Positions 27,901 through 41,500 of a stretch of 64,000 nucleotides of DNA are shown here, piece by piece. Each line of letters begins with the position of its first letter. The first letter of the stretch is position 1. The position numbers were made by a program, and so were the translations under genes. Source of the DNA: a virus (lineage: Duplodnaviria; Caudoviricetes); the IMG/VR virus record IMGVR_UViG_3300029288_004596, positions 32,001 through 96,000 of that record; one strand, 5' to 3'. The notes under the pieces were generated by a model, which saw nothing but the letters and a program-made list of their open reading frames with translations, was not told the DNA's origin and searched no databases.

Positions 27901-30378
27901 CATCATGGCTCTGAATCTGCCTTCAGTTCCCCATGACTCTCCAAGGATATTGCTCAGTCCCTGGATCGGAAGCACTTTCTTTCCTTCTATATCTAGGATT
28001 ATTCTTTTAGCTGGGTTAATCGCTTCGCTGGATCTGACTCTCAGGTCTTCTAAGGCAGAGACTTCAAATAGCTCGGAGGCTTCTTTGTATTCCTGGTCAG
28101 CTGGACTTATTCTCCACTTCCCTTTGGCTATTCTCTCCAGCTCTATCCGCACTACATCCCTGGGGTTGAAACCTCTGCCTATGTTCTCATACTTTTTGAG
28201 TCTCTCATCTAAGGCTAATAGTATATCCCCAGCTTCCGCGTTTATGTTTCTATTGGTGAGGTCAAAGCCAGCTTCTTTAAGGGCCGTTATCAGCGGGGCT
28301 CTCTCTAGGTTATTTTCAGTCACTCCCTGGCCAAGGATTCTTCCCGCTATACCCAGCTGTCTAAACTGCCATCTTTCCAGCTTGGAAGTTTGTCCAGCGA
28401 GTCCTATCAACCCAGGAACAGCTTCTTCTGATGCTGGGGCTATTCCCTGTTTTACCTTATATAAGTCTATCTGTCCTATAAGGTTATCTAGGACATCTTC
28501 ATCCATTCCCTGGGGTAGGACTATACCCACATCAAACTTGCTAAGAAGGACCTCGACATTGTTAGTGGGGACTCCATATAGTTTGGTTTCCCCTCCCTCA
28601 AGGGCTTTCCTAGTAATTCTGTATGGGACTTTTCCTACTGTGGCATACTTGGTTGTGCCAGCTGAGTAAGCCATGGCCTCTTCTATAAGAGCCGCTTTCT
28701 TAGAGGCTGTGGAGTGCGCCTCTTCCCATGAGGGTCTGGTGTAGATATCCCTTATGGTGTCTCCCTGTAGTCTTCTTTCACTCCATTCATTTTCTATATC
28801 ATCCCATGGTCCTCTGAAAACTTCATAAGGTCTTGTTTCTCTAAATTCTCTTTCATACTGGTCCACCTTCAGCCATTGCAGAGTTGGGTTTACTATGCCC
28901 TTGGTTAGATTCTCAGGATACTGTGCTGGGATTATATCCGCTACTGTGTTGGATATGTCTCCCATCACGCTGGATAGGTACTCTAGGGTTGAATCTATCC
29001 CATGGGCTCTGGATGCAGTGACAAACTTGGGAGATTTGGATGAGCCTATCAGGGCTCCTTTTTCATTGGCGTAGGAACTCCATTCTCCCGCCACTATGCT
29101 GTAACCTTTTGTTGTTCTCTGAGGAATGGTTGATTGACGAGCTTTGTTTCTTACGCTAGATCCAAACAGACTGGCATTCCCTGGGTCTGTGGCATAGAAG
29201 TCTCTATCAAAGGTCCCAGCATAAGTGTTGACTACCTGGTTGTACTCGAATCTGTTGGGGAACTCTTCAGCCATCATAGAGATGGCGTTCTCTATGTTAG
29301 CCCCAGTCAACCTCAACTTAGCCAATTCATTATTTAGTTGAGGTATGAGACCTCCTTTCCTCATGAGTTTCCTGGAGAGTCTCTCAGCGTATAAGTTGAT
29401 AGCCTGTCTATCCCCAGCCTTTAAAGCTCCAGCTAGATTAGAGATAGCTCTTATTACATCATCTGAATATGCTACTTTGGGTCTATCAAAGAGGGTGGCA
29501 AACTCCCTCCATATCCTGGCCTGCTCTGGGGTAGCGTTGCCAGCATGCGCGGCTTGCGCAGCCCCTATGATATTTTCCAGCCTCTGTCCAGTGAAGAGTC
29601 CTGAGAAATCTGAACTTGGGTTTACAAGTTTCCACACATCCATCAGGTTCTGAGCCTGCCAGGACTTGGACTCTATAAGAGTCTGGATATTCTTTTTCTT
29701 ATTGAGCAGAGTCCTAAGTCTTTCTTCTGCCGCATCAGACTCGCTCACATAATGTTTGAGGTCTCTAGCTCCATCTATTGGAGCGTTGGTGGATAATCCA
29801 AGGGTTGTTCTTCTGCTCTCATCCAGGATAGCGGCCAAGTCATTAACCACATTCCTAACAGTGGCGTTGCTTCTATCTGGTAGTTTCTGGAGGATATAAG
29901 CTCTGAGTCTAGCCTTGTCCACATTCCTGAGGTTGATGCCCATGACTCTGGAGGTTTCCATGCTGTCCGCTTCCAGAGCGTTTAACACCGCCAGGATATC
30001 ATGTTTAGTCTCTAGCCTGGGTTCATTCTCCACTTTCTTCCTGACAGCGTCTATAGAACTCTTGATAGTCCCTGTCTTCACATGGGTGGCTGGAGTCCCT
30101 GGGATATTCCTGGCCGCCATAGCCGCTTGGGCGTTGGCGGTGTAACTTCCAGCTATCCTGTTAGGTATGGTTTCTCTTATTGCTTTGGAAATATTCTCCA
30201 GGACAGGTCTTATGGAGTTGGCGTCTATAGGATATCTTTTGTAGGTGGAGTAGGCGGCATAGTAAACCGTGACAGCGATAAAGCCCTCGCTGATAGGATC
30301 AATCGAGGTTATCCTGCCTTCTCTTAAGGTTTGGTTGTCGCGTACTCGGTCTCCGACCTTGTAGTGTCTGTAGTCCAT
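24949..30378 (-). CDS. Giant protein with an internal DEDDh (DnaQ-like) 3'-5' exonuclease domain (~26860-27360) (1809 aa)
   Basis: YIDIETN, VVGHNIQFD, IDTMLLA, YSLENLA and EEHIGVYDAATT form a complete DEDDh set; N-terminal SH3/KOW-like YKVGDRVRD; the rest looks helical and is unassigned. Confidence 0.75.
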   Translation of the reverse strand: MDYRHYKVGDRVRDNQTLREGRITSIDPISEGFIAVTVYYAAYSTYKRYPIDANSIRPVLENISKAIRETIPNRIAGSYTANAQAAMAARNIPGTPATHVKTGTIKSSIDAVRKKVENEPRLETKHDILAVLNALEADSMETSRVMGINLRNVDKARLRAYILQKLPDRSNATVRNVVNDLAAILDESRRTTLGLSTNAPIDGARDLKHYVSESDAAEERLRTLLNKKKNIQTLIESKSWQAQNLMDVWKLVNPSSDFSGLFTGQRLENIIGAAQAAHAGNATPEQARIWREFATLFDRPKVAYSDDVIRAISNLAGALKAGDRQAINLYAERLSRKLMRKGGLIPQLNNELAKLRLTGANIENAISMMAEEFPNRFEYNQVVNTYAGTFDRDFYATDPGNASLFGSSVRNKARQSTIPQRTTKGYSIVAGEWSSYANEKGALIGSSKSPKFVTASRAHGIDSTLEYLSSVMGDISNTVADIIPAQYPENLTKGIVNPTLQWLKVDQYEREFRETRPYEVFRGPWDDIENEWSERRLQGDTIRDIYTRPSWEEAHSTASKKAALIEEAMAYSAGTTKYATVGKVPYRITRKALEGGETKLYGVPTNNVEVLLSKFDVGIVLPQGMDEDVLDNLIGQIDLYKVKQGIAPASEEAVPGLIGLAGQTSKLERWQFRQLGIAGRILGQGVTENNLERAPLITALKEAGFDLTNRNINAEAGDILLALDERLKKYENIGRGFNPRDVVRIELERIAKGKWRISPADQEYKEASELFEVSALEDLRVRSSEAINPAKRIILDIEGKKVLPIQGLSNILGESWGTEGRFRAMMEALGPILGEDNLGLEVVLGRLVSGNAKKKLQEASLLLQRIQETELKIDAAMREAANLTGQALSTHMSKVDKLFAQRSSLEEAINAVRNSINLNLNKTIGLEGTGTLTEQGLLYNGNLYYKNPEEIELGLKDLYTISSTPPPGSLDISRTTEAKFVKLANGAVIPLSDMDMLERLKYFKSEYGTYIDIETNPENQITNIGGVGYSHDRGALNVGEAPNWKNEFGKKVPGYTPNFVTTEKESIEQLTSWLGRENPYVVGHNIQFDFNALISRAQELGFPPEVLASLEKKRLKSIDTMLLAKVYEDLTGNLIPGGYSLENLAKYLGVRAGTWKEEHIGVYDAATTRDIAAELMNRIGALQSRISGQEVTDPFTGKYLFGLEGTSTKGRLFQIHGYDFSDSSTAVLRELDDRGNALDKYVRVTDSTYNLVNRLQGQFHTFETLEEGTKARIEYAQDLAGRRIRRARESTAAGIDEAYRLENLDEIYLRQQRGEDVTKYVGLLDDERLQKQMGYVREAWLDEYNDFHRGFYERLNSLNFTKEQEKEILSNYWSRVDELAPYERLNRRIDTWNRKLSFNIDALGANAESINISSAEAFDADVQRISRRLIGNMSDTEKAVLGLSKEMPPDDLARVSATLWNETIAPALATQRTPLAQKIGDPELLEAIQGGATSLREYALKIGSTPEHLLDIERYNLLTQGEFSNYLQNRRNNLAAQSAQIESIGNEVLENSLRPPLTVPYSNWIAKEFKGKPLSEVPLDRVGRQIFATPDLDDVTRRNIMDYLGWNNVPEEAMDLEGRIIGSLSPGELDKVASDWRNPIELRNLVRSYINRDMGIDPLAIERVTQPSFTKFSGGMYNIVSQAEETAPRVVEWMSDHKLPVAIMAAGAAFAAMRKPNLENVEEKEMPISVKHNDISTKISPKYKSIRISVDGTTEQHISHNDLVESIQTALGAGSNAPIPAQPTVNTQDNRTVFDKNYIDDMATKLAGG

Positions 30379-30920
30379 TAGAATAACGATAGCGGGTGTA
30401 GATCTTTAAGGGGTATACACTTGGCTGGGTATTTCAGTTTTTCATCCACTGGTATATCTTCTATAGTCTGAGCTGTAGTCCATCCAAGGACATAGCCGTC
30501 CCTGTTCTTAGGGTTATAGCCACAGCATATGTAGATATCATGAGAATTTTCCAGATCATAATCTGAGATCATGACTGTAAAGGTCTCCAGGTTAAGAGAA
30601 TCATCATAGAGCTTCTTCTTATTCTTAAGAATCCTAGGGGTGAGTCTCCTAGTCTTCACATAGATGTTCTTGTTATTCACTGTGTACTCCGGGGTCTCCC
30701 AGAAAGGGCTTATCCTTTCATAGTCTGTTCCCATGTAGTTGAGGAACTCCTCAAATAGGAAACCTCCTATGGAACTCACGGCTCCAATCCTGGAATCTTT
30801 CTTCCTTGTCAGATCATAGGCATGTTTCTTCCAGGTGTCAGCGCCTACCCTCACATAGAACCCTTCACTCAGAGGGTCTAATCTTTTTGCTCTCTTGTAT
30901 TTCTCTCCTAGTGTCGTCAT
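30378..30920 (-). CDS. Hypothetical protein, possible restriction-endonuclease-like PD-(D/E)XK fold (180 aa)
   Basis: G..FEEFL...PEYTVNNKNIYVKTR...YICCGY...YVLGW pattern; the acidic catalytic residues are atypical. Confidence 0.4.
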   Translation of the reverse strand: MTTLGEKYKRAKRLDPLSEGFYVRVGADTWKKHAYDLTRKKDSRIGAVSSIGGFLFEEFLNYMGTDYERISPFWETPEYTVNNKNIYVKTRRLTPRILKNKKKLYDDSLNLETFTVMISDYDLENSHDIYICCGYNPKNRDGYVLGWTTAQTIEDIPVDEKLKYPAKCIPLKDLHPLSLF

Positions 30921-31107
30921 CTAGATACTTTATCTCCCAAAATCTCCTGTTGAATTTTTTCTGGTACTCCCTTGGTTTATCGTATAACCTGAAGGAGAAG
31001 TCAAACATCTCCTTGGTCAGCAGTTCCTTGTTATACTTTGTGGCTATGTTTTTCATCACCCTGTCAATGAAGGTTTTCCTATACTTTATTTTCTTCGTGC
31101 GGCCCAT
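30865..31107 (-). CDS. Small basic hypothetical protein (80 aa)
   Basis: ORF in the co-oriented chain with a purine-rich upstream sequence. Confidence 0.45.
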   Translation of the reverse strand: MGRTKKIKYRKTFIDRVMKNIATKYNKELLTKEMFDFSFRLYDKPREYQKKFNRRFWEIKYLDDDTRREIQESKKIRPSE

Positions 31108-31405
31108 CTACTTCCACTATAAGTTCATAACTTATAGCATCTCTCTCCTTTCCTCTCTTTACATGAACTCCTATCTTTCCTCCCACTTCAGGGACGAAAC
31201 CCATCCCTATGAACTCTAGGGGTTCATCTTTGCTGGTTCCTTTTATATAGACATCTCCAACCTCAAAACCTGTGGGATCATCTGTGAGGGCTCCTTCCTT
31301 TATGTACCCCAGCTTACTATACATTATAGTTATTCTGGAGCCCTCTCCTGTCGTTACCTCGTACCTAGTCAACCCAGATTTTCTAGTAGTGCTATTTGAT
31401 ATCAT
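31079..31405 (-). CDS. Hypothetical protein (108 aa)
   Basis: AAGGAG RBS upstream; co-oriented. Confidence 0.55.
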   Translation of the reverse strand: MISNSTTRKSGLTRYEVTTGEGSRITIMYSKLGYIKEGALTDDPTGFEVGDVYIKGTSKDEPLEFIGMGFVPEVGGKIGVHVKRGKERDAISYELIVEVDGPHEENKV

Positions 31406-31415
31406 TATTAAGAAC

Positions 31416-32429
31416 TTATCTCCTTAGAGTAGAAGAAAGAAAACCTCCCTTCCAGATTTGCTTAGCTAATAATTTACAATCTTCTTTTCTAATGTCTTGA
31501 CTTAGTCTTTTTCCTTCTCTGATACTATGTAAGGAAACTCTTCTATTAGAAGAACCTCCAACAAGACACTTTCCATACTTTGGATGAAGGATCAGCATTC
31601 CTCTAGGTATTCCTAAACTAACTGTAGAACCATAAGTCTTCCTTTTCCCTTCTTTTGGATTAGCAACATGTAGTTGTCTTCTATGCCACTGCATGAAATC
31701 AAACTTATAGAACCCCTTGAATGGTATAATATCCCCTAAGACAAGTTCACAGAGACAGTGGCTATCAACACAGTGCGCTTCCCATGTGTCTTTTAATTTA
31801 TTACTGGTCTTCTTGAATCCTCTGTAGTTTCTCTGTTCATGAGTCTCAAAGCCTCTGTGTTTCCATGATCTGAGTCCTCTCTTTTCTACCTCGGACCCAA
31901 ACCACTGCTTGCCAACTTCTAAAGGACTGAACATGACATTCCACCTGCGTTGTCCTTTCTTACTTTCTGCACATAAATCTTCTACTACTATATCTGTTAT
32001 AGGCACTATCTTTGATATAGCATCAATTACTCTAGTGTGTGCCTGCCAGCGAGCTTTAGTGGAAGGTGGAATACATCCTATAGTCCTATTGTATCTACAC
32101 TTCCTATAAGGAGTTTTTCTTCTTCTTCTACTTCTTCTTAGAATACTTCGTAGTTTTACTGCATCCTTGACCCACCATGGTGTGTTCAACTGAATGTTTA
32201 AAACTACCTTTGTTTCAGTAGCCACAGTAACTCCTGTTCTTTTGCTGCCAGGATCAATCCCTATGACTACATCTCTTGTAGCTCTTGATGATGGCTCCTT
32301 CTGTAGTATTATGCAGAAGATGCCTTTGTGCCAGTAGGCTTTAGCTTCCTTCTTTTCCATTAGTTTCCTAGCCCTCTTCTCAGAGCATGGCATCAATGGT
32401 TGTTTGTTTGAGTCTAATACAGGAACCAA
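31416..32429 (-). CDS. isrB: IsrB-type OMEGA RNA-guided nickase (IscB family lacking HNH; IS200/IS605-derived) (337 aa)
   Basis: N-terminal VLD...PLMPC..RARKL (PLMP); RuvC-I IGIDPGSKRTG; Arg-rich bridge helix RRSRRRRKTPYR; RuvC-II IVVED; RuvC-III HCVD; no HNH; size fits IsrB; AAGGAG RBS before TTG. Confidence 0.85.
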   Translation of the reverse strand: MVPVLDSNKQPLMPCSEKRARKLMEKKEAKAYWHKGIFCIILQKEPSSRATRDVVIGIDPGSKRTGVTVATETKVVLNIQLNTPWWVKDAVKLRSILRRSRRRRKTPYRKCRYNRTIGCIPPSTKARWQAHTRVIDAISKIVPITDIVVEDLCAESKKGQRRWNVMFSPLEVGKQWFGSEVEKRGLRSWKHRGFETHEQRNYRGFKKTSNKLKDTWEAHCVDSHCLCELVLGDIIPFKGFYKFDFMQWHRRQLHVANPKEGKRKTYGSTVSLGIPRGMLILHPKYGKCLVGGSSNRRVSLHSIREGKRLSQDIRKEDCKLLAKQIWKGGFLSSTLRR

Positions 32430-32434
32430 AGTGT

Positions 32435-32681
32435 CTCCTTAGTTTGGGTTTACACCCCTTGTTAAAATCGCTTCGACTGTCGGGAAACTCATTGAAAGAA
32501 GGCTAGCGAAACACCCTCTATGTGCAGTGTAACCTTTCGATGTTACTACATCCCTTACATTGCCTCTAAGGCCAGTCTAGTCAACATGTTACCCTTGGAA
32601 CTCGCAGCTCGTTAAGCTCTAGGTCCCAAGCCCTTAGCTTTAACTATAGGGTTTACGACTCCTTGATTGTCTACTCTAGCT
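32435..32681 (-). ncRNA. Putative omegaRNA (scaffold ~32435-32659, 5' guide ~32660-32681)
   Basis: Non-coding region of about 285 bp directly upstream of isrB. It begins with a GTC..AACCC-hairpin-GGGCTTG, contains a later GTTGACTAG and several stem-loops (e.g. GTAAC-ATCGAAAG-GTTAC), as expected of IscB/IsrB omegaRNAs. Boundaries are approximate. Confidence 0.7.
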
Positions 32682-32714
32682 TAAATCCTTAGCAATAGCT
32701 ATAGGGTTTATGAC
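32627..32714 (-). repeat. Two 33-nt imperfect hairpin direct repeats separated by a 22-nt spacer
   Basis: GTCATAAACCCTATAGCTATTGCTAAGGATTTA (32682-32714) and GTCGTAAACCCTATAGTTAAAGCTAAGGGCTTG (32627-32659), 26/33 identical. Confidence 0.8.
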
Positions 32715-32716
32715 AC

Positions 32717-33190
32717 CTAGTCAATGTATCCTGTGGCTAGCCCTGAGGCTACCATCTCCTCTGAACCTATGTATCTTCCACTCTCCACCAGTTCCTTATA
32801 CTTCTCTACTGGTATGTCTGTGTTGCCTGTGATAAATCTTTCCAGCACTGAGTCGTCAATCTTCAATCCCTCAGCCGCTATCTGCAGTTCCTTGTAACTC
32901 CTCCAGGAAGAGCACTGTTCTGTGATATTATGAAACAGGAAGGTGGCGTACTTGCTTACCAACCTGTTCTTTCCAGCCGCGAATATCATTGTGGCGCTTG
33001 AAGCCACATATCCTAGTCCCACAGTGTCTGCGTTTCTCATCTTAAGAGCAGTGGCTATTCCCATAGCTGCGGGGACTTCTCCTCCTGAACAGGATATCCA
33101 GACAGTGATGTCTTCTTCAGCATCCAGTATCTCCTTGATAATGCTGTCAGCTACATCCGAATCAATCTTTGTGACTATGATATTTACCAT
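32717..33190 (-). CDS. clpP: ClpP-like serine protease (157 aa)
   Basis: ISCSGGEV..AMGI, GLGYVASSATMIFAAG (catalytic Ser), FLFHN (catalytic His), Y...EEMV..GL. Confidence 0.85.
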   Translation of the reverse strand: MVNIIVTKIDSDVADSIIKEILDAEEDITVWISCSGGEVPAAMGIATALKMRNADTVGLGYVASSATMIFAAGKNRLVSKYATFLFHNITEQCSSWRSYKELQIAAEGLKIDDSVLERFITGNTDIPVEKYKELVESGRYIGSEEMVASGLATGYID

Positions 33191-34068
33191 GTAACCCCCA
33201 AGTCTTTTGATAGTCTGTATCTTGTAGTCTGGCTTAGAGCTTCCACAAACTGTGGATGGCTTGCTGGGATAAGTGTAGATCTCCTGTGTCCACAGTATCT
33301 CCAGTGAAGGTTTTCCATGTCCTCAAATACCTCTATGGTCAGTTTCTTTTCTGAGGCTGCAGAGTATATGGCTGGAGAAGTGAATCCTATAGATCCTATG
33401 CAGTTAGGATGCTGCACAGCTCCAACAGAAAATAGGATATCTTCGCTGTCTTCTACAATACTATACATAGGAGGGAGATTATCTCTGGTCACTCCCATGC
33501 TTTTCAGCCTCTCAGCTCCAGCTAGAACTATAAACTTCTGGCTGGATTCCTTCTTGTAGTTCTCATAGAGTTTCTCCCTGACATAGCTTTTGTTTACAGT
33601 TATAGTGTCTATTAGATAGTCTTCTGGCATGGTGTCTATGGGAAGTTCTGTGGCAAAGGTTATGATCTCGCAGTAACCTTTGACTAGGTTCCATTCTGGG
33701 GGAGCATTGGGATCCAGTCTGGGGTAGAAGTCAGGTTTTTGCACCTGCTCTTCCAGGATTCCATTGGCCTTGGCTATTTCTTTTACCCTCTTGTCTATTT
33801 CCTCTTTTGTTCTTCGCCTGGTCAAAAACTCCATTTCCTTGGTTTTGTTTACATCAGCTTCAAGTCTTATGGCATACTTGTAGTCTGTGTTGGCTGGCAG
33901 TACAGCTGTACTTTTATCCACAAACCAGGCCTTGCTCCCGTAGTTCCTCTGGTGTTCATTGTTTGTGACTAGTATCTGAGTTTCATCATAGAAGTCCTTA
34001 TACAGTTCCATGGCCTTACATGCCGCCATAAAGTCTGTATTGTCCCCTTCAAAGATGTAAGTGATCAT
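33184..34068 (-). CDS. Hypothetical protein, possibly a divergent GT9 (heptosyltransferase-like) GT-B fold
   Basis: N-terminal EGDNTDFMAACKAM..YK...I.VT and C-terminal IGFTSPAIYSAASEKKLTIEVF echo GT9 motifs (G.GD...; IG.DSG..H.AAA...T..LF). The ATG at 34068 overlaps the upstream TGA. Confidence 0.4.
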   Translation of the reverse strand: MITYIFEGDNTDFMAACKAMELYKDFYDETQILVTNNEHQRNYGSKAWFVDKSTAVLPANTDYKYAIRLEADVNKTKEMEFLTRRRTKEEIDKRVKEIAKANGILEEQVQKPDFYPRLDPNAPPEWNLVKGYCEIITFATELPIDTMPEDYLIDTITVNKSYVREKLYENYKKESSQKFIVLAGAERLKSMGVTRDNLPPMYSIVEDSEDILFSVGAVQHPNCIGSIGFTSPAIYSAASEKKLTIEVFEDMENLHWRYCGHRRSTLIPASHPQFVEALSQTTRYRLSKDLGVTW

Positions 34069-34352
34069 TTCCTTCTCCTGCTTGAGGGAACCCAGACCCA
34101 TAGAGTAGACCCAATAGAAATGTGTTCTTTCAGGGTTATTTGGTATTCGCAGTCAAACTCTTCTATAGTGTATAGGTTGGGGAATAGAAGTCTCCCCTCA
34201 GGTCTAACAAACACCAGACAGTTGTTCTTCTCTATTTCTCTTTCCCTGAGTTCTTCAGAGACTCTGGTTATAGCTGTGAGAGCTTCGTTTTTGTCAAAGT
34301 CCACAAGCTTGAATGTGTTGTCAGATATCTTGTAAGTTAGTATCCCTGGCAT
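34065..34352 (-). CDS. Hypothetical protein (95 aa)
   Basis: TAATG coupling with GGAGG RBS. Confidence 0.55.
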   Translation of the reverse strand: MPGILTYKISDNTFKLVDFDKNEALTAITRVSEELREREIEKNNCLVFVRPEGRLLFPNLYTIEEFDCEYQITLKEHISIGSTLWVWVPSSRRRK

Positions 34353-35467
34353 TATAACCTCCTTCCCGTCAGTTCAGAAGTGTAGTTGGCGCAGTAACTG
34401 CCATCTAGATTTATTCCCATAATCACGTTCCCTGGCAGCGCCGGGGAGTAATCCATTCTATAGGCATAGGTGTCTAACCAGTCCATAAAGGACCCGGCAA
34501 TTATGTTGTAGCATATCCACTGTTCCTCGCACTTCTTCTGAGAGTTCATTATAGTGAAGGGTTCCCTGTATATGTTGGGACAGTGAACATGACCTGAGAT
34601 GTTGAAGTGTATAAACCCAGGATTTCCTACCTTTGTCATGGCGGCCCTCTGAATGCCAGTAGGAGTGGAAGGGCACCTTAGCCCATGTCTAGCCATGAAT
34701 TCCCAGGAGTGTGCCCCAGCGGAAACCATAAATCTAACTGATCCATCAAAGGATTCTATCTTGAGTTCTCTGGCTATCAGTTTGTTTATATTCTGTCCAG
34801 AGCCTTTTCTGGTGCGGTTTTCATGGTTTCCTGGGAGAGTGAATAGTATCTTGTGGGAGATGGGAGCGAGGAGTTCAAGGAGGTCATCCACCTGCACATC
34901 TGGGGGTTTTATAGTGTCGTAACACATCCCCCTCCCATCCTCCATAGCGTTCTCCATGATATCTCCTCCAATGAAGGTAGACACATTTGGGGTGTTCTTT
35001 ATAAAGTCTATGTGCTGCAGGAACTCATCATACTTGTGTCCTCTATGTCCATAGTGCACATCATAAAGAGGCAGGAAATAATAGGTGTCATCCACAAAAC
35101 AACTCTCAGGAAGATCTACAAACAGGGATCTCTGAAGGCCTCCTTGTTCCGCTAATGGTCTGTGGGTTACAAACTCTGTGGACTTGACGCTTGTAGGCAC
35201 CAACTGATATGTGGTTACATCCTTGGATACCTTGGCTATGTGGCTTCCTTTGTACTCCTTATCGAGCACTGACTGATACTTGGGGCCGAACTTTTTCTCT
35301 AACTCTACCACTGTTCTTGGCTTGGTGAGGAACCCTATAGGTGTATCGGGCAGCTCCTTCATCTCTGTGGCGAAAGTGTGCACTCCTAAGTGCGTTAGTC
35401 CTAATTCCTCTGCTATCACATCGTAAGGTTTGCCTGAAAGGATTGCCTCTTCAAGGCTTCTTGTCAT
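34352..35467 (-). CDS. Calcineurin-like metallophosphoesterase with an N-terminal HTH-like extension
   Basis: DVHYG, GGDIME, PGNHE, RHG and GHVH motifs; GGAGG precedes the ATG at 35467. Confidence 0.9.
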   Translation of the reverse strand: MTRSLEEAILSGKPYDVIAEELGLTHLGVHTFATEMKELPDTPIGFLTKPRTVVELEKKFGPKYQSVLDKEYKGSHIAKVSKDVTTYQLVPTSVKSTEFVTHRPLAEQGGLQRSLFVDLPESCFVDDTYYFLPLYDVHYGHRGHKYDEFLQHIDFIKNTPNVSTFIGGDIMENAMEDGRGMCYDTIKPPDVQVDDLLELLAPISHKILFTLPGNHENRTRKGSGQNINKLIARELKIESFDGSVRFMVSAGAHSWEFMARHGLRCPSTPTGIQRAAMTKVGNPGFIHFNISGHVHCPNIYREPFTIMNSQKKCEEQWICYNIIAGSFMDWLDTYAYRMDYSPALPGNVIMGINLDGSYCANYTSELTGRRL

Positions 35468-38500: not shown

Positions 38501-41500
38501 AACCTGCGGCTACTACTGTGTAAGGATCTCCTCCACCGCCAGTTCCCCCTCCCTTGAGGGACATGTTTATAGCTCTTATCCCTTCCTTGGCCTGGGTCTT
38601 GCCCATGTTCTCCGGGAGATATTCTGGGTATAGAACTCTTTCAGGTTTGAAGATCCTGCCTATAGTAGAGTTGACTAGTGGTCCCCATAGGGTTTCTCGA
38701 GTGGCTATTGGGCCGGACACTACATAAGGTCTGTCTGGGTTGTCCCCCATGGAGTGGCGCTGTTCCCACCACATAGGGTCTAGGAATCTCATCACTGGAG
38801 CTAAGGGGTGCCGGGGGGTAGGCAGCAGAGAGTGAGCCCAGTAAGCGTCTGACCTCATGTCAGCATTCTCAGCGTCCTGCCAGTTGGAGTAGGCCAGCTG
38901 ATATGGATCTGGCATGTAGTATTTTATCTTGTCCCCATAGATAGGCGATCTTGAGCCAAATAGCCACAGCCTTCCTCTCCTTACCGGGACATATCCTGAT
39001 TCTAACTGTTTTTTGGTATCCTCTGGAGTGGTGCCTGCAAGATAATTATCCATGCCTGGGTGGAGTTCATTGTATCTCTCCCAGTCATTGAGGTGTGAGA
39101 AGGCTATCTTGGCGTTGGCTCTTACATTGGCCTTTAGTTCATTAGGGGAGGTTCCAAAGAGGTTCTCTGATTCCCAGTTCACATAGTTCCAGGCTTCTAT
39201 TCCTAGTACAGCCGGTACTATTCTCTGCATTATCAGACCCCTGAGGATCTTGCCTCCAGAACCCATGGCCTCAGGTCCGAGTCCTAATCCGAAAGCTTCC
39301 AGAGGTTTATTGAGTCTTGAGTTGAAGAAGTACCAGGTGAGAGCTGACCTGGTCATATCCTCAGGATCATCCACTCCCCTCCATAGGGCAGTGGTATACT
39401 GTTTTATAGCTGTAGAGCCTGTGATATTGCTCAGGACATCAAAGAAGTTTCCTCCGTTTTGCCAGGCTCTGTTTATAGACTCTAGTATTGACTGGTGCTC
39501 TTTTATAAAAAGTCTCTGAGGACCATTGCTTATCTCAGGATTCCAAGTATCCCAATACCCGAGCTTGGCATCTACCATTGCTTCAGCAGTTAATCTTATG
39601 TCTTCTGAGATATGTTGCGAACCTACCAGTCCTTGATACGCTCCTCTAGCTCCTGATATTCCTGTCAGCTGATCTCCCAATAGATAACCATATCTGACAG
39701 CTAAGGCGTCTCTCGATTCATTGATAGGCACATCCAAGTTTACTATGATATCTTCGATTCCTCTTCCCAGCTGACCAGGACCACCTAGGTTTATATTTCT
39801 CAGAACCTCTTCTTTTATAAATTTCCTGGCAGTGTCATAGCCAGTGAGAGGTTCTTCTTTCCCAAGGAACATATCCACTAGAGGATTCACCGAGTTTCTA
39901 GCAGTCTTCTTCCCCAGGGTTCTGGCTGGGTCCCTGTCAAACTCCTCAAGGAAGTATCTGAACTCATCTGACCTTATAGCTTTTCTGTCTACATTTAATA
40001 GATAATGCAGTAGATGGCTGTTGGAATCCAGGTTATTGGCAGCTACCCTGAGATCTATAGGGAGATAGCCCCCATTGGCCGTCACATCATCTAGGATTCC
40101 TTCCAGGACATTCTGAGATATATTGCCTTCCTTTTTCAGGAAGTTTACCACAGACCTTATGGATTCTATATTTCTTACAGGATCAAAGTCTGGGTTGTTG
40201 TATATATCGTTTAACGCAGCGGCTGGGTAAGTGGAACCTGGATTCATCTTGGCGAATATGGATTTTACTTTCCCAAACCATGACTGCTCTCTTTGATTGA
40301 GTTGCAGAGTTCCTCTAGTCCCACCATGTCCAAATCCCAGCGCTCCTCTGACTCCTCCGGTCTTAGGGGTGTCAAGATAGTCTGTGAGGTTCTTGTAGAT
40401 GTCTTCCACAAATCCGCTATCCGCAGTTAAAGAAGTGTAGCCTTTGCCCAGTTCTCCTATAGAAGCGTTGCCCAGTTCTGAGAACCTGGAACCTATAAGA
40501 GTGTTGCCAGCTATAGTCAGGTCCTGCCCCTGAGCCGCCAGGTGCCTAGTGAGAGGCTGTCTAGCCACAGCGTTCTGGTGGATAATATCAAAGGTTCTCC
40601 CAGTTCCTCCTTTTAGCCAGCCAAAGAACTGAGTTGGGGAGAAACCTTCCAGGTATGGGAGCACTGGGATCTGCATGTTCTGGTCTACCCAGTCTATAGC
40701 TCTTCCTAGAGTTTCCTTGAAACCTCTCAGGTCTCTGACAGTTCCTTTTTCATCCATCCAGATCTGCCCTACAGCAGTGGAGTTTATTATATCCTGAAGA
40801 CCTTCTCTGTGCCCTGATAAACTCAGGGAGGCTCTTAATCTCGCTGAGGATTCCTGAGCCTGCCTCACCACATCTGCTGAGAACCTGTCTCTATTGGAGA
40901 GCACGTCATTGACAGTGACTCTTCTAGCTCCCAGCTGCTCCATGAGAGCGTCCATGTAAGTGGGGCCTCTCCCAGCAGCCATGTTGCTAGCTTTGGCCTT
41001 GGTGACGACTCTTCTTTGCAGAGCGTCTATAAACGCTTCCGCATGGACTTCTCTGGCTCTCTGCAACTGGGCTCTAAGATTATCTGACAGAGGAAAATCT
41101 TTATTGAACAGGGTTGTCAGATTGCTTTGGTCAAAAGCTCTTTCCAGATTCTTCTGGATCTCCGGTATGTTTCCTCCAACTGAGGCCACGAAATCCCTGT
41201 AAGCGTCTTCCTGAATGACGGAACTTCTAAGGGTTCCTCCATGCAGCCACTGGTTTATTCTTGAAGAAGGAGCCACTCCCCTATTGTATCCCAGGAGCAG
41301 GTCCACCTGTTCTCTGGAGAACACTCCTGTGGCTCTGAACCTCTCTTCAGCCACCTGCTGTCTCAGCCTCAGAGGCAGAGTCTCTGACATAGCCGCTCTT
41401 ATCTCATTGGATAAGTTGGTTATGGAGAGGTTTCCTAGCTTCTCGGAACCGGTGGCGAACTTAGACACAAAGCGTTCTACGCCATTTATGATGTAGCCGC

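Follow-up and report, generated by a model that had tools for sequence, protein, structure and literature searches.

The closest described counterparts of the locus analysed here are the IsrB-omegaRNA systems, exemplified by IsrB of Desulfovirgula thermocuniculi (DtIsrB), which pair an HNH-less PLMP/RuvC protein of ~340 aa with a structured omegaRNA encoded immediately 5' of it in the same orientation (Altae-Tran 2021; Hirano 2022, PMC9581776). In these RNAs the guide lies 5' of the scaffold, a stem S1 is closed by a 5' GUC, two stem-loops (SL1 and SL2) are embedded in it, and an NTGA-type motif stands at the far end of the element; more specifically, DtIsrB has a guide of 20 nt and the target-adjacent motif (TAM) of IsrB is 5'-NTGA-3' (PMC9581776). 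For the related IscB, the right end of the transposon gives rise to the scaffold, the guide is external to it and transcription has to enter the element from upstream (Meers et al., 10.1101/2023.03.14.532601). Non-autonomous IS200/IS605 elements, PATEs and stand-alone omegaRNAs have subterminal hairpins at both ends and insert beside a fixed 4-nt motif, two traits also seen in the present locus. A third point of comparison is offered by the CRISPR arrays associated with IscB/Cas9d; in Cas9 systems the guide-adjacent strand became the crRNA repeat (PMC9581776), and duplication of omegaRNA segments is indeed stated in the literature as a proposed route to such arrays (PMC10691335).

The locus shares the protein type, RNA layout and far-end motif (here ATGA) of the IsrB-omegaRNA systems. 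It differs from them in lacking an Rfam match, in a scaffold of ~230 rather than 262 nt, in its residence in a jumbo phage (genome of 216,899 bp, 45% GC), in a nicking activity that is predicted only, and in a degenerate second copy of the ascending strand of S1 plus SL1, 55 nt upstream. In this part of the window, by which we mean the whole 64-kb stretch of DNA analysed, all genes are carried on the minus strand, and the order from 5' to 3' is a ClpP-like ORF, a 33-mer, a 22-mer, a second 33-mer, ~200 nt of non-coding sequence and a 337-aa ORF (Table 1). The whole is best explained, with a probability of about 0.7, as an IsrB element accompanied by a decaying partial duplicate of one of its ends. 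More specifically, we posit a canonical, non-autonomous IS200/IS605-type IsrB (OMEGA) element, which sits between the ClpP-like gene and the next gene of the operon and is oriented as they are.

Table 1. Features of the IsrB locus (positions in the window)
Feature	Position	Strand	Remarks
10-nt direct repeat, copy 1	32715..32724	-	Abuts GTCA of the distal copy; overlaps the clpP stop codon
ClpP-like protease gene, 157 aa	32717..33190	-	Pfam CLP_protease, 8.6e-17; upstream of and co-oriented with the IsrB element
Distal copy	32714..32682	-	Degenerate duplicate of the omegaRNA 5' module: right-end-type hairpin plus 8 nt starting GTCA
22-nt unique segment	32660..32681	-	Its 3' 16-20 nt occupy the guide position of the omegaRNA
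Proximal copy	32659..32627	-	True 5' module of the omegaRNA (GUC as the ascending strand of S1, followed by SL1); also the transposon end
omegaRNA scaffold (predicted), ~230 nt	32430..32659	-	RNAalifold, 10 homologues
isrB, 337 aa	31416..32429	-	TTG start with a good Shine-Dalgarno sequence; Pfam RRXRR, 1.6e-39
3' subterminal hairpin, left-end type, degenerate	31415..31435	-	Overlaps the isrB stop codon; homologous to the conserved 3' hairpin of 39 loci
ATGA, transposon-adjacent and putative target-adjacent motif (NTGA type)	31402..31405	-	Its ATG opens the next ORF
Downstream ORF, 108 aa	31079..31405	-	No family match
10-nt direct repeat, copy 2	31363..31372	-	29 nt past ATGA; followed by ACGA

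The product of the 337-aa ORF is an IsrB, a predicted RNA-guided nickase, as evidenced by RRXRR (PLMP) as its only Pfam domain, the absence of an HNH domain and intact RuvC residues D59, E150, H219 and D222, with all invariant columns kept in an alignment of 36 homologues. Such homologues are numerous (1,246 at E<=1e-20), the closest being ~75% identical, and relative to these closest proteins the C-terminus is ~9 aa shorter. No second RRXRR gene was found in the genome.

An Rfam scan of positions 30000-35000 at E<=1 returned no family, and the omegaRNA was therefore defined from homologues. We collected 160 loci with relatives of the IsrB protein and aligned the closest ones. The RNAalifold consensus of the regions upstream of isrB in 10 homologues comprises 38 pairs, 23 of them with compensatory changes, and the GUC at scaffold positions 1-3 pairs with the GAC of a conserved motif ~80 nt downstream, closing a stem around two hairpins in an S1/SL1/SL2 layout that matches the omegaRNA of DtIsrB (PMC9581776). 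The duplicated segment corresponds to the ascending strand of S1 together with SL1. Family conservation begins sharply at GTCA and continues with ACCC, then a hairpin that covaries and is capped by a UAAA loop, then GGGCUUG; sequences 5' of GTCA are unrelated between homologous loci (>70 loci aligned), and the four copies within a single 327-kb phage genome differ both directly 5' of GTCA and directly 3' of ATGA. Positions G1, T2, A4, C9-11, G26-28, C29 and T31 are invariant in 72 distinct sequences. A covariance model built from these 72 family sequences (R1; the sequences of the window were left out) found the proximal copy as its best match in the whole window (18 bits, E 0.044) and gave the distal copy -0.9 bits. 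The proximal copy thus sits exactly on the scaffold boundary of the >70 related loci, and judged by this conservation, position 32659 (GUC...) is both the start of the scaffold and the end of the transposon.

The distal and proximal copies are identical at 26 of 33 positions by hand count (79%), while a repeat search aligned 32632-32663 with 32687-32718 at a spacing of 55 (27/32 identical). Both fold into the same hairpin of 8 bp, in which a single A is bulged; the folding energies are -7.5 (distal) and -7.4 kcal/mol (proximal). The likeness may extend weakly on either side, with four of the six bases 5' of the copies identical and a common 6-mer at a 2-nt offset on the 3' side, neither of which is significant alone. 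With two repeats and one spacer present, TRF calls no array. A preliminary description of this DNA is borne out on these points: it had named the gene as IsrB, taken the hairpin as the first stem-loop of an omegaRNA, placed the guide between the two copies where the scaffold begins, and given the positions and counts of the two 33-nt copies, their hairpins and the unique 22 nt between them as they are found here.

The far end of the element is likewise defined by the family. In 39 distinct loci a second hairpin, resembling the first, lies in the 3' end of isrB and is followed by ~19 nt and ATGA, after which similarity ends; in one phage ATGA directly follows the element in all four copies. The resulting geometry, with 8 nt between the 5' hairpin and the boundary and ~19 nt between the 3' hairpin and ATGA, has the asymmetry of IS200/IS605 ends, with isrB antisense to the transposase top strand, so that the 5' end of the omegaRNA corresponds to the right end (10.1101/2023.03.14.532601). 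From this set of loci the 5' boundary of the omegaRNA, the hairpins of both ends and the ATGA motif are defined for a large IsrB clade carried mostly by phages. Mispairing and AT drift mark the 3' hairpin in the window, and the spacer between it and ATGA measures 9 nt, as against ~19 nt in the family; the sequence profile of the 3' end module detected neither this end nor the distal unit. The degenerate 3' end makes mobility doubtful, and the copy in the window is probably no longer mobile although its gene and RNA are intact. A truncation of the 3' end similar to that in the window was also observed in locus L158. IsrB elements usually lack the transposase TnpA, and no TnpA (PF01797) was found in the 217-kb genome by a search whose controls were positive. 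The locus differs from IS200/IS605 derivatives in this absence and in the shortened left end of the present element, and also in its distal unit, in which a right-end part is recognisable and no left-end part was detected.

Transcription from upstream most likely continues into the omegaRNA by read-through, as described for IscB, with the ClpP-like gene as the likely source. Its stop codon lies at 32717-32719, separated from the distal copy by 2 nt. A scan of 32300-33300 around the repeats found no sigma-70-type promoter-like and no terminator-like sites, and their absence between clpP and isrB is consistent with such read-through. The 16-20 nt preceding the scaffold (32679/32675..32660) would then act as the guide and ATGA (31405..31402) as the TAM, and IsrB with its omegaRNA would nick the joint of guide and ATGA when the element is excised or in a co-infecting genome free of the element. 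Nicking of this joint would favour retention or re-copying of the element. The 22-mer is simply the DNA that now flanks the element, a guide by position alone, and joined to ATGA it forms the canonical predicted donor-joint target. The distal copy would be what remains of an earlier insertion at the same motif, or else the product of a local duplication, and would now be decaying, in which case the 22-mer is DNA that came to lie between this scar and the present element.

The state of the distal copy fits this proposal. In the alignment of 72 sequences (A2) it departs from the family at the invariant G28 and C29 and at the near-invariant A19, A20 and G32, that is, at the closing G, C and G of GGGCUUG and two As of the UAAA loop, and keeps GTCA and the stem; by the same measure the proximal copy departs at one conserved position. 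Conversely, the distal copy retains the family-invariant A4 and a C-G pair where the proximal copy has lost A4 and has a U-G wobble; its stem is fully kept. The copies share derived states (the order of bases 5-7, the stem sequence and the bulge), which makes them each other's closest relatives. The ~5 derived changes at conserved positions of the distal copy look like a pattern of relaxed constraint, and we regard it as probably a relic or duplication scar that is decaying and non-functional, the most likely source being the end of an earlier IS200/605 element. No SL2 or further scaffold follows the distal copy, the remaining ~200 nt being absent, and the likeness is limited to the first 33 nt, which are far better preserved than the 22 nt that follow. 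This contrast could reflect selection on the hairpin, or the 22 nt may never have been homologous.

Three specific origins of the distal copy were examined, and no support was found for any of them. Neither a 55-nt tandem duplication nor a mini-unit cut from the scaffold accounts for the 26 nt after the distal hairpin, which are unlike the scaffold downstream of SL1 (p 0.47), and a solo-hairpin relic with a left-end tail is not supported either, these 26 nt being unlike the left-end spacers of the family (p 0.63). An older full element in which the present one is nested was also discarded, as the 260 nt after the element are unlike the scaffold (p 0.26) and have only a 9-mer in common with it.

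Two copies of a 10-nt direct repeat, of which the genome has three in all, enclose a block made up of the distal copy, the element and 29 nt of downstream flank. The repeat is predicted by neither simple origin model and points to a non-canonical event by which the entire block arrived or was rearranged. As a general signature of insertion a direct repeat in the flanks was rejected, no comparable repeat being present in 36 other IsrB loci. The first 14 codons of the downstream 108-aa ORF lie inside the repeat-bounded block, so a later in-frame ATG may be its true start. No isrB-free allele of the locus was found, which is attributable to the lack of database relatives of this phage. Neither the ClpP-like protein nor the 305-aa protein next to it (window 32717-34101, minus strand) had relatives among 5.8 billion proteins in a word-seeded search, peptide scans of viral contigs with the ClpP-like protein and a 180-aa downstream protein gave no matches, and blastn against GenBank phages gave none for the locus. 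The sole other record of the locus is an ENA assembly (L193), which is identical. Judged from these searches the jumbo phage would represent an orphan lineage, and on present evidence the locus is a well-bounded IsrB element in such a phage, whose guide end carries a scar from an earlier event.

Duplication of the 5' module is rare in the family. Only one of 81 other distinct loci, L115 (IMGVR_UViG_3300035659_001198), carries a second copy of its own 33-nt module within 300 nt upstream. At 2211-2278 of this record the 5' modules stand in tandem with a period of 34 and a gap of 2 nt, leaving no spacer, next to a single isrB. Both units start at GTCA and score with the family model (30 and 23 bits), and an ATGA within the scaffold comes after the second. 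Of the two copies in L115, the outer is the better fit to the family model. The arrangement suggests a motif-directed duplication of a mini-unit and shows that duplication of the module need not give rise to a spacer. L115 and the window thus have in common the same 5' module in two copies starting at GTCA, and L115 differs in lacking a spacer and in that both of its units score. Two independent duplications of the guide-adjacent module provide the raw material required by the hypothesis that arrays originate from omegaRNAs.

Other readings of the two copies have to be weighed against an element with a decaying end duplicate. That unrelated hairpins resemble each other by chance, a reading favoured by short length only, is in effect refuted by the counts: at least 27 of 32 identities are expected ~1e-5 times among all position pairs of the 2.3-kb region, as are 26 of 33 at a spacing of 55 nt, so the likeness of the 33-mers is not attributable to chance, and the derived states shared by the copies point the same way. 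An alternative that we consider unlikely, though the least so of these, is that the distal hairpin has a role in cis and is not an array repeat. It could define where a ~22-nt guide begins on the read-through transcript, acting as a 5' structural cap or a processing signal, or it could be an outer, alternative transposon end; under the second option, included in the same assessment, a transposase acting in trans would mobilise the element and the 22 nt as one, giving a hard-wired guide. The preserved stem, bulged A and 8-nt GTCA-type terminus of the distal copy, its folding energy equal to that of the proximal copy and its possession of the A4 that the latter has lost would all suit such a role, as would a spacing that fits the 20-nt guide of DtIsrB (PMC9581776) and the dependence of IscB-type omegaRNAs on read-through, by which the 5' end must be defined somehow (10.1101/2023.03.14.532601). 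However, with a second copy in just 1 of 81 other loci, and there without a spacer, the family does not need such a hairpin; conserved bases adjacent to the hairpin have been lost, the genome is devoid of TnpA and the degenerate other end (9- rather than 19-nt spacer, mispaired hairpin) renders mobility doubtful.

The preliminary description had favoured a nascent array on a phage IsrB. In a working mini-array of this kind the 22-mer would be a captured spacer that directs IsrB against foreign DNA, for example L164-type phages (see below), and the distal copy a second handle, the whole being an OMEGA-CRISPR intermediate. If true, the long-standing problem of the descent of CRISPR arrays from transposon guide RNAs would gain a natural intermediate, and one found in a phage. 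The geometry of repeat, spacer and repeat and a unique segment of near guide length are indeed array-like, the duplicated piece is the guide-adjacent strand, and array formation by omegaRNA segment duplication has been proposed (PMC10691335). A search of hosts and phages with the 22-mer, as the description had called for, yielded a single lead. A 20-mer taken from it had no match in 185,579 species genomes and one in 2.9 million viral contigs, in a 33%-GC record (L164) that has nothing else in common with the 45%-GC phage. Window positions 32680..32659 (minus strand) match L164:4192-4213 exactly (22/22), within codons 2-8 of a tail-fibre gene (370 aa) located after a J-like tail gene, and a relative of this contig, L167, matches at 21 of 22, more distant relatives having diverged. 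About 0.05-0.08 exact 22-mers are estimated to be expected by chance over both collections, a figure that counts against the array, and a rough control with a 21-mer from the right flank matched nothing in either collection. A tblastn search of GenBank phages with the N-terminus of the L164 tail-fibre protein found no match. The array reading survives on the strength of the L164 match alone, which is possibly due to chance. The bases 3' of it are not NTGA, whereas ATGA flanks every family element, and by the TAM rule the site would not be a cleavable target. A fixed guide between two element ends, aimed at the start of the tail-fibre gene of a competing L164/L167-type phage and captured in passage from omegaRNA to array, strikes us as improbable, distinctly more so than a role in cis. 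The loss of family-invariant bases from the distal copy and its score far below that of the proximal one in the family model argue against a second handle; with only the ascending strand of S1 and SL1, and ~200 nt of scaffold missing, this copy does not support the further suggestion that it presents the 3' end of clpP as a second guide. Nor is the 22-mer a guide decoupled from its surroundings, being trivially the immediate flank of the element and, with the far-end ATGA, a standard donor-joint target. In contrast to IscB/Cas9d arrays, only two copies are present, they are 79% identical and the outer one is degenerate; SL1 pairs with itself, without an anti-repeat logic, and is not a duplex able to recruit a scaffold in trans; no match to the Cas1 family was found in the genome, and no target with the correct TAM came to light. 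The nascent array is for these reasons not upheld, and a decaying duplicate of the element end remains our preferred account.

Within the phage itself the 22-mer occurs once in the 216,899 bp. Apart from this there is an 18-of-22 match at window 39630-39651 (minus strand), in frame in a 2031-aa ORF; no NTGA follows it, and ~0.02 matches of this quality are expected per genome of this size.

A further likeness to IS200/IS605 derivatives is that another jumbo phage contains relics of this element family and copies of it without a gene. The 327-kb phage genome mentioned above (G001; L084/L086/L087/L092) contains at least 11 full 5' modules compared with four isrB genes. We also observed in it omegaRNA mini-elements without a gene that have both ends and ATGA, and a truncated 5' relic of ~110 nt before a small ORF; L192:1135-1245 and L192:1501-1960 are examples from this genome. 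Taken together, these modules and relics indicate that remnants of the element family are ordinary in jumbo phages.

ATGA is also the classic overlap of stop and start codons between phage genes. Elements of the IsrB clade lie immediately 5' of ATGA, and in several phage loci this motif is the stop/start overlap of the neighbouring genes, which places IsrB elements at such overlaps. The stop codon of isrB can itself be the TGA of ATGA, the next gene keeping its ATG, as in L154, where the motif at 1397-1400 is common to the stop of isrB and the start of the following gene.
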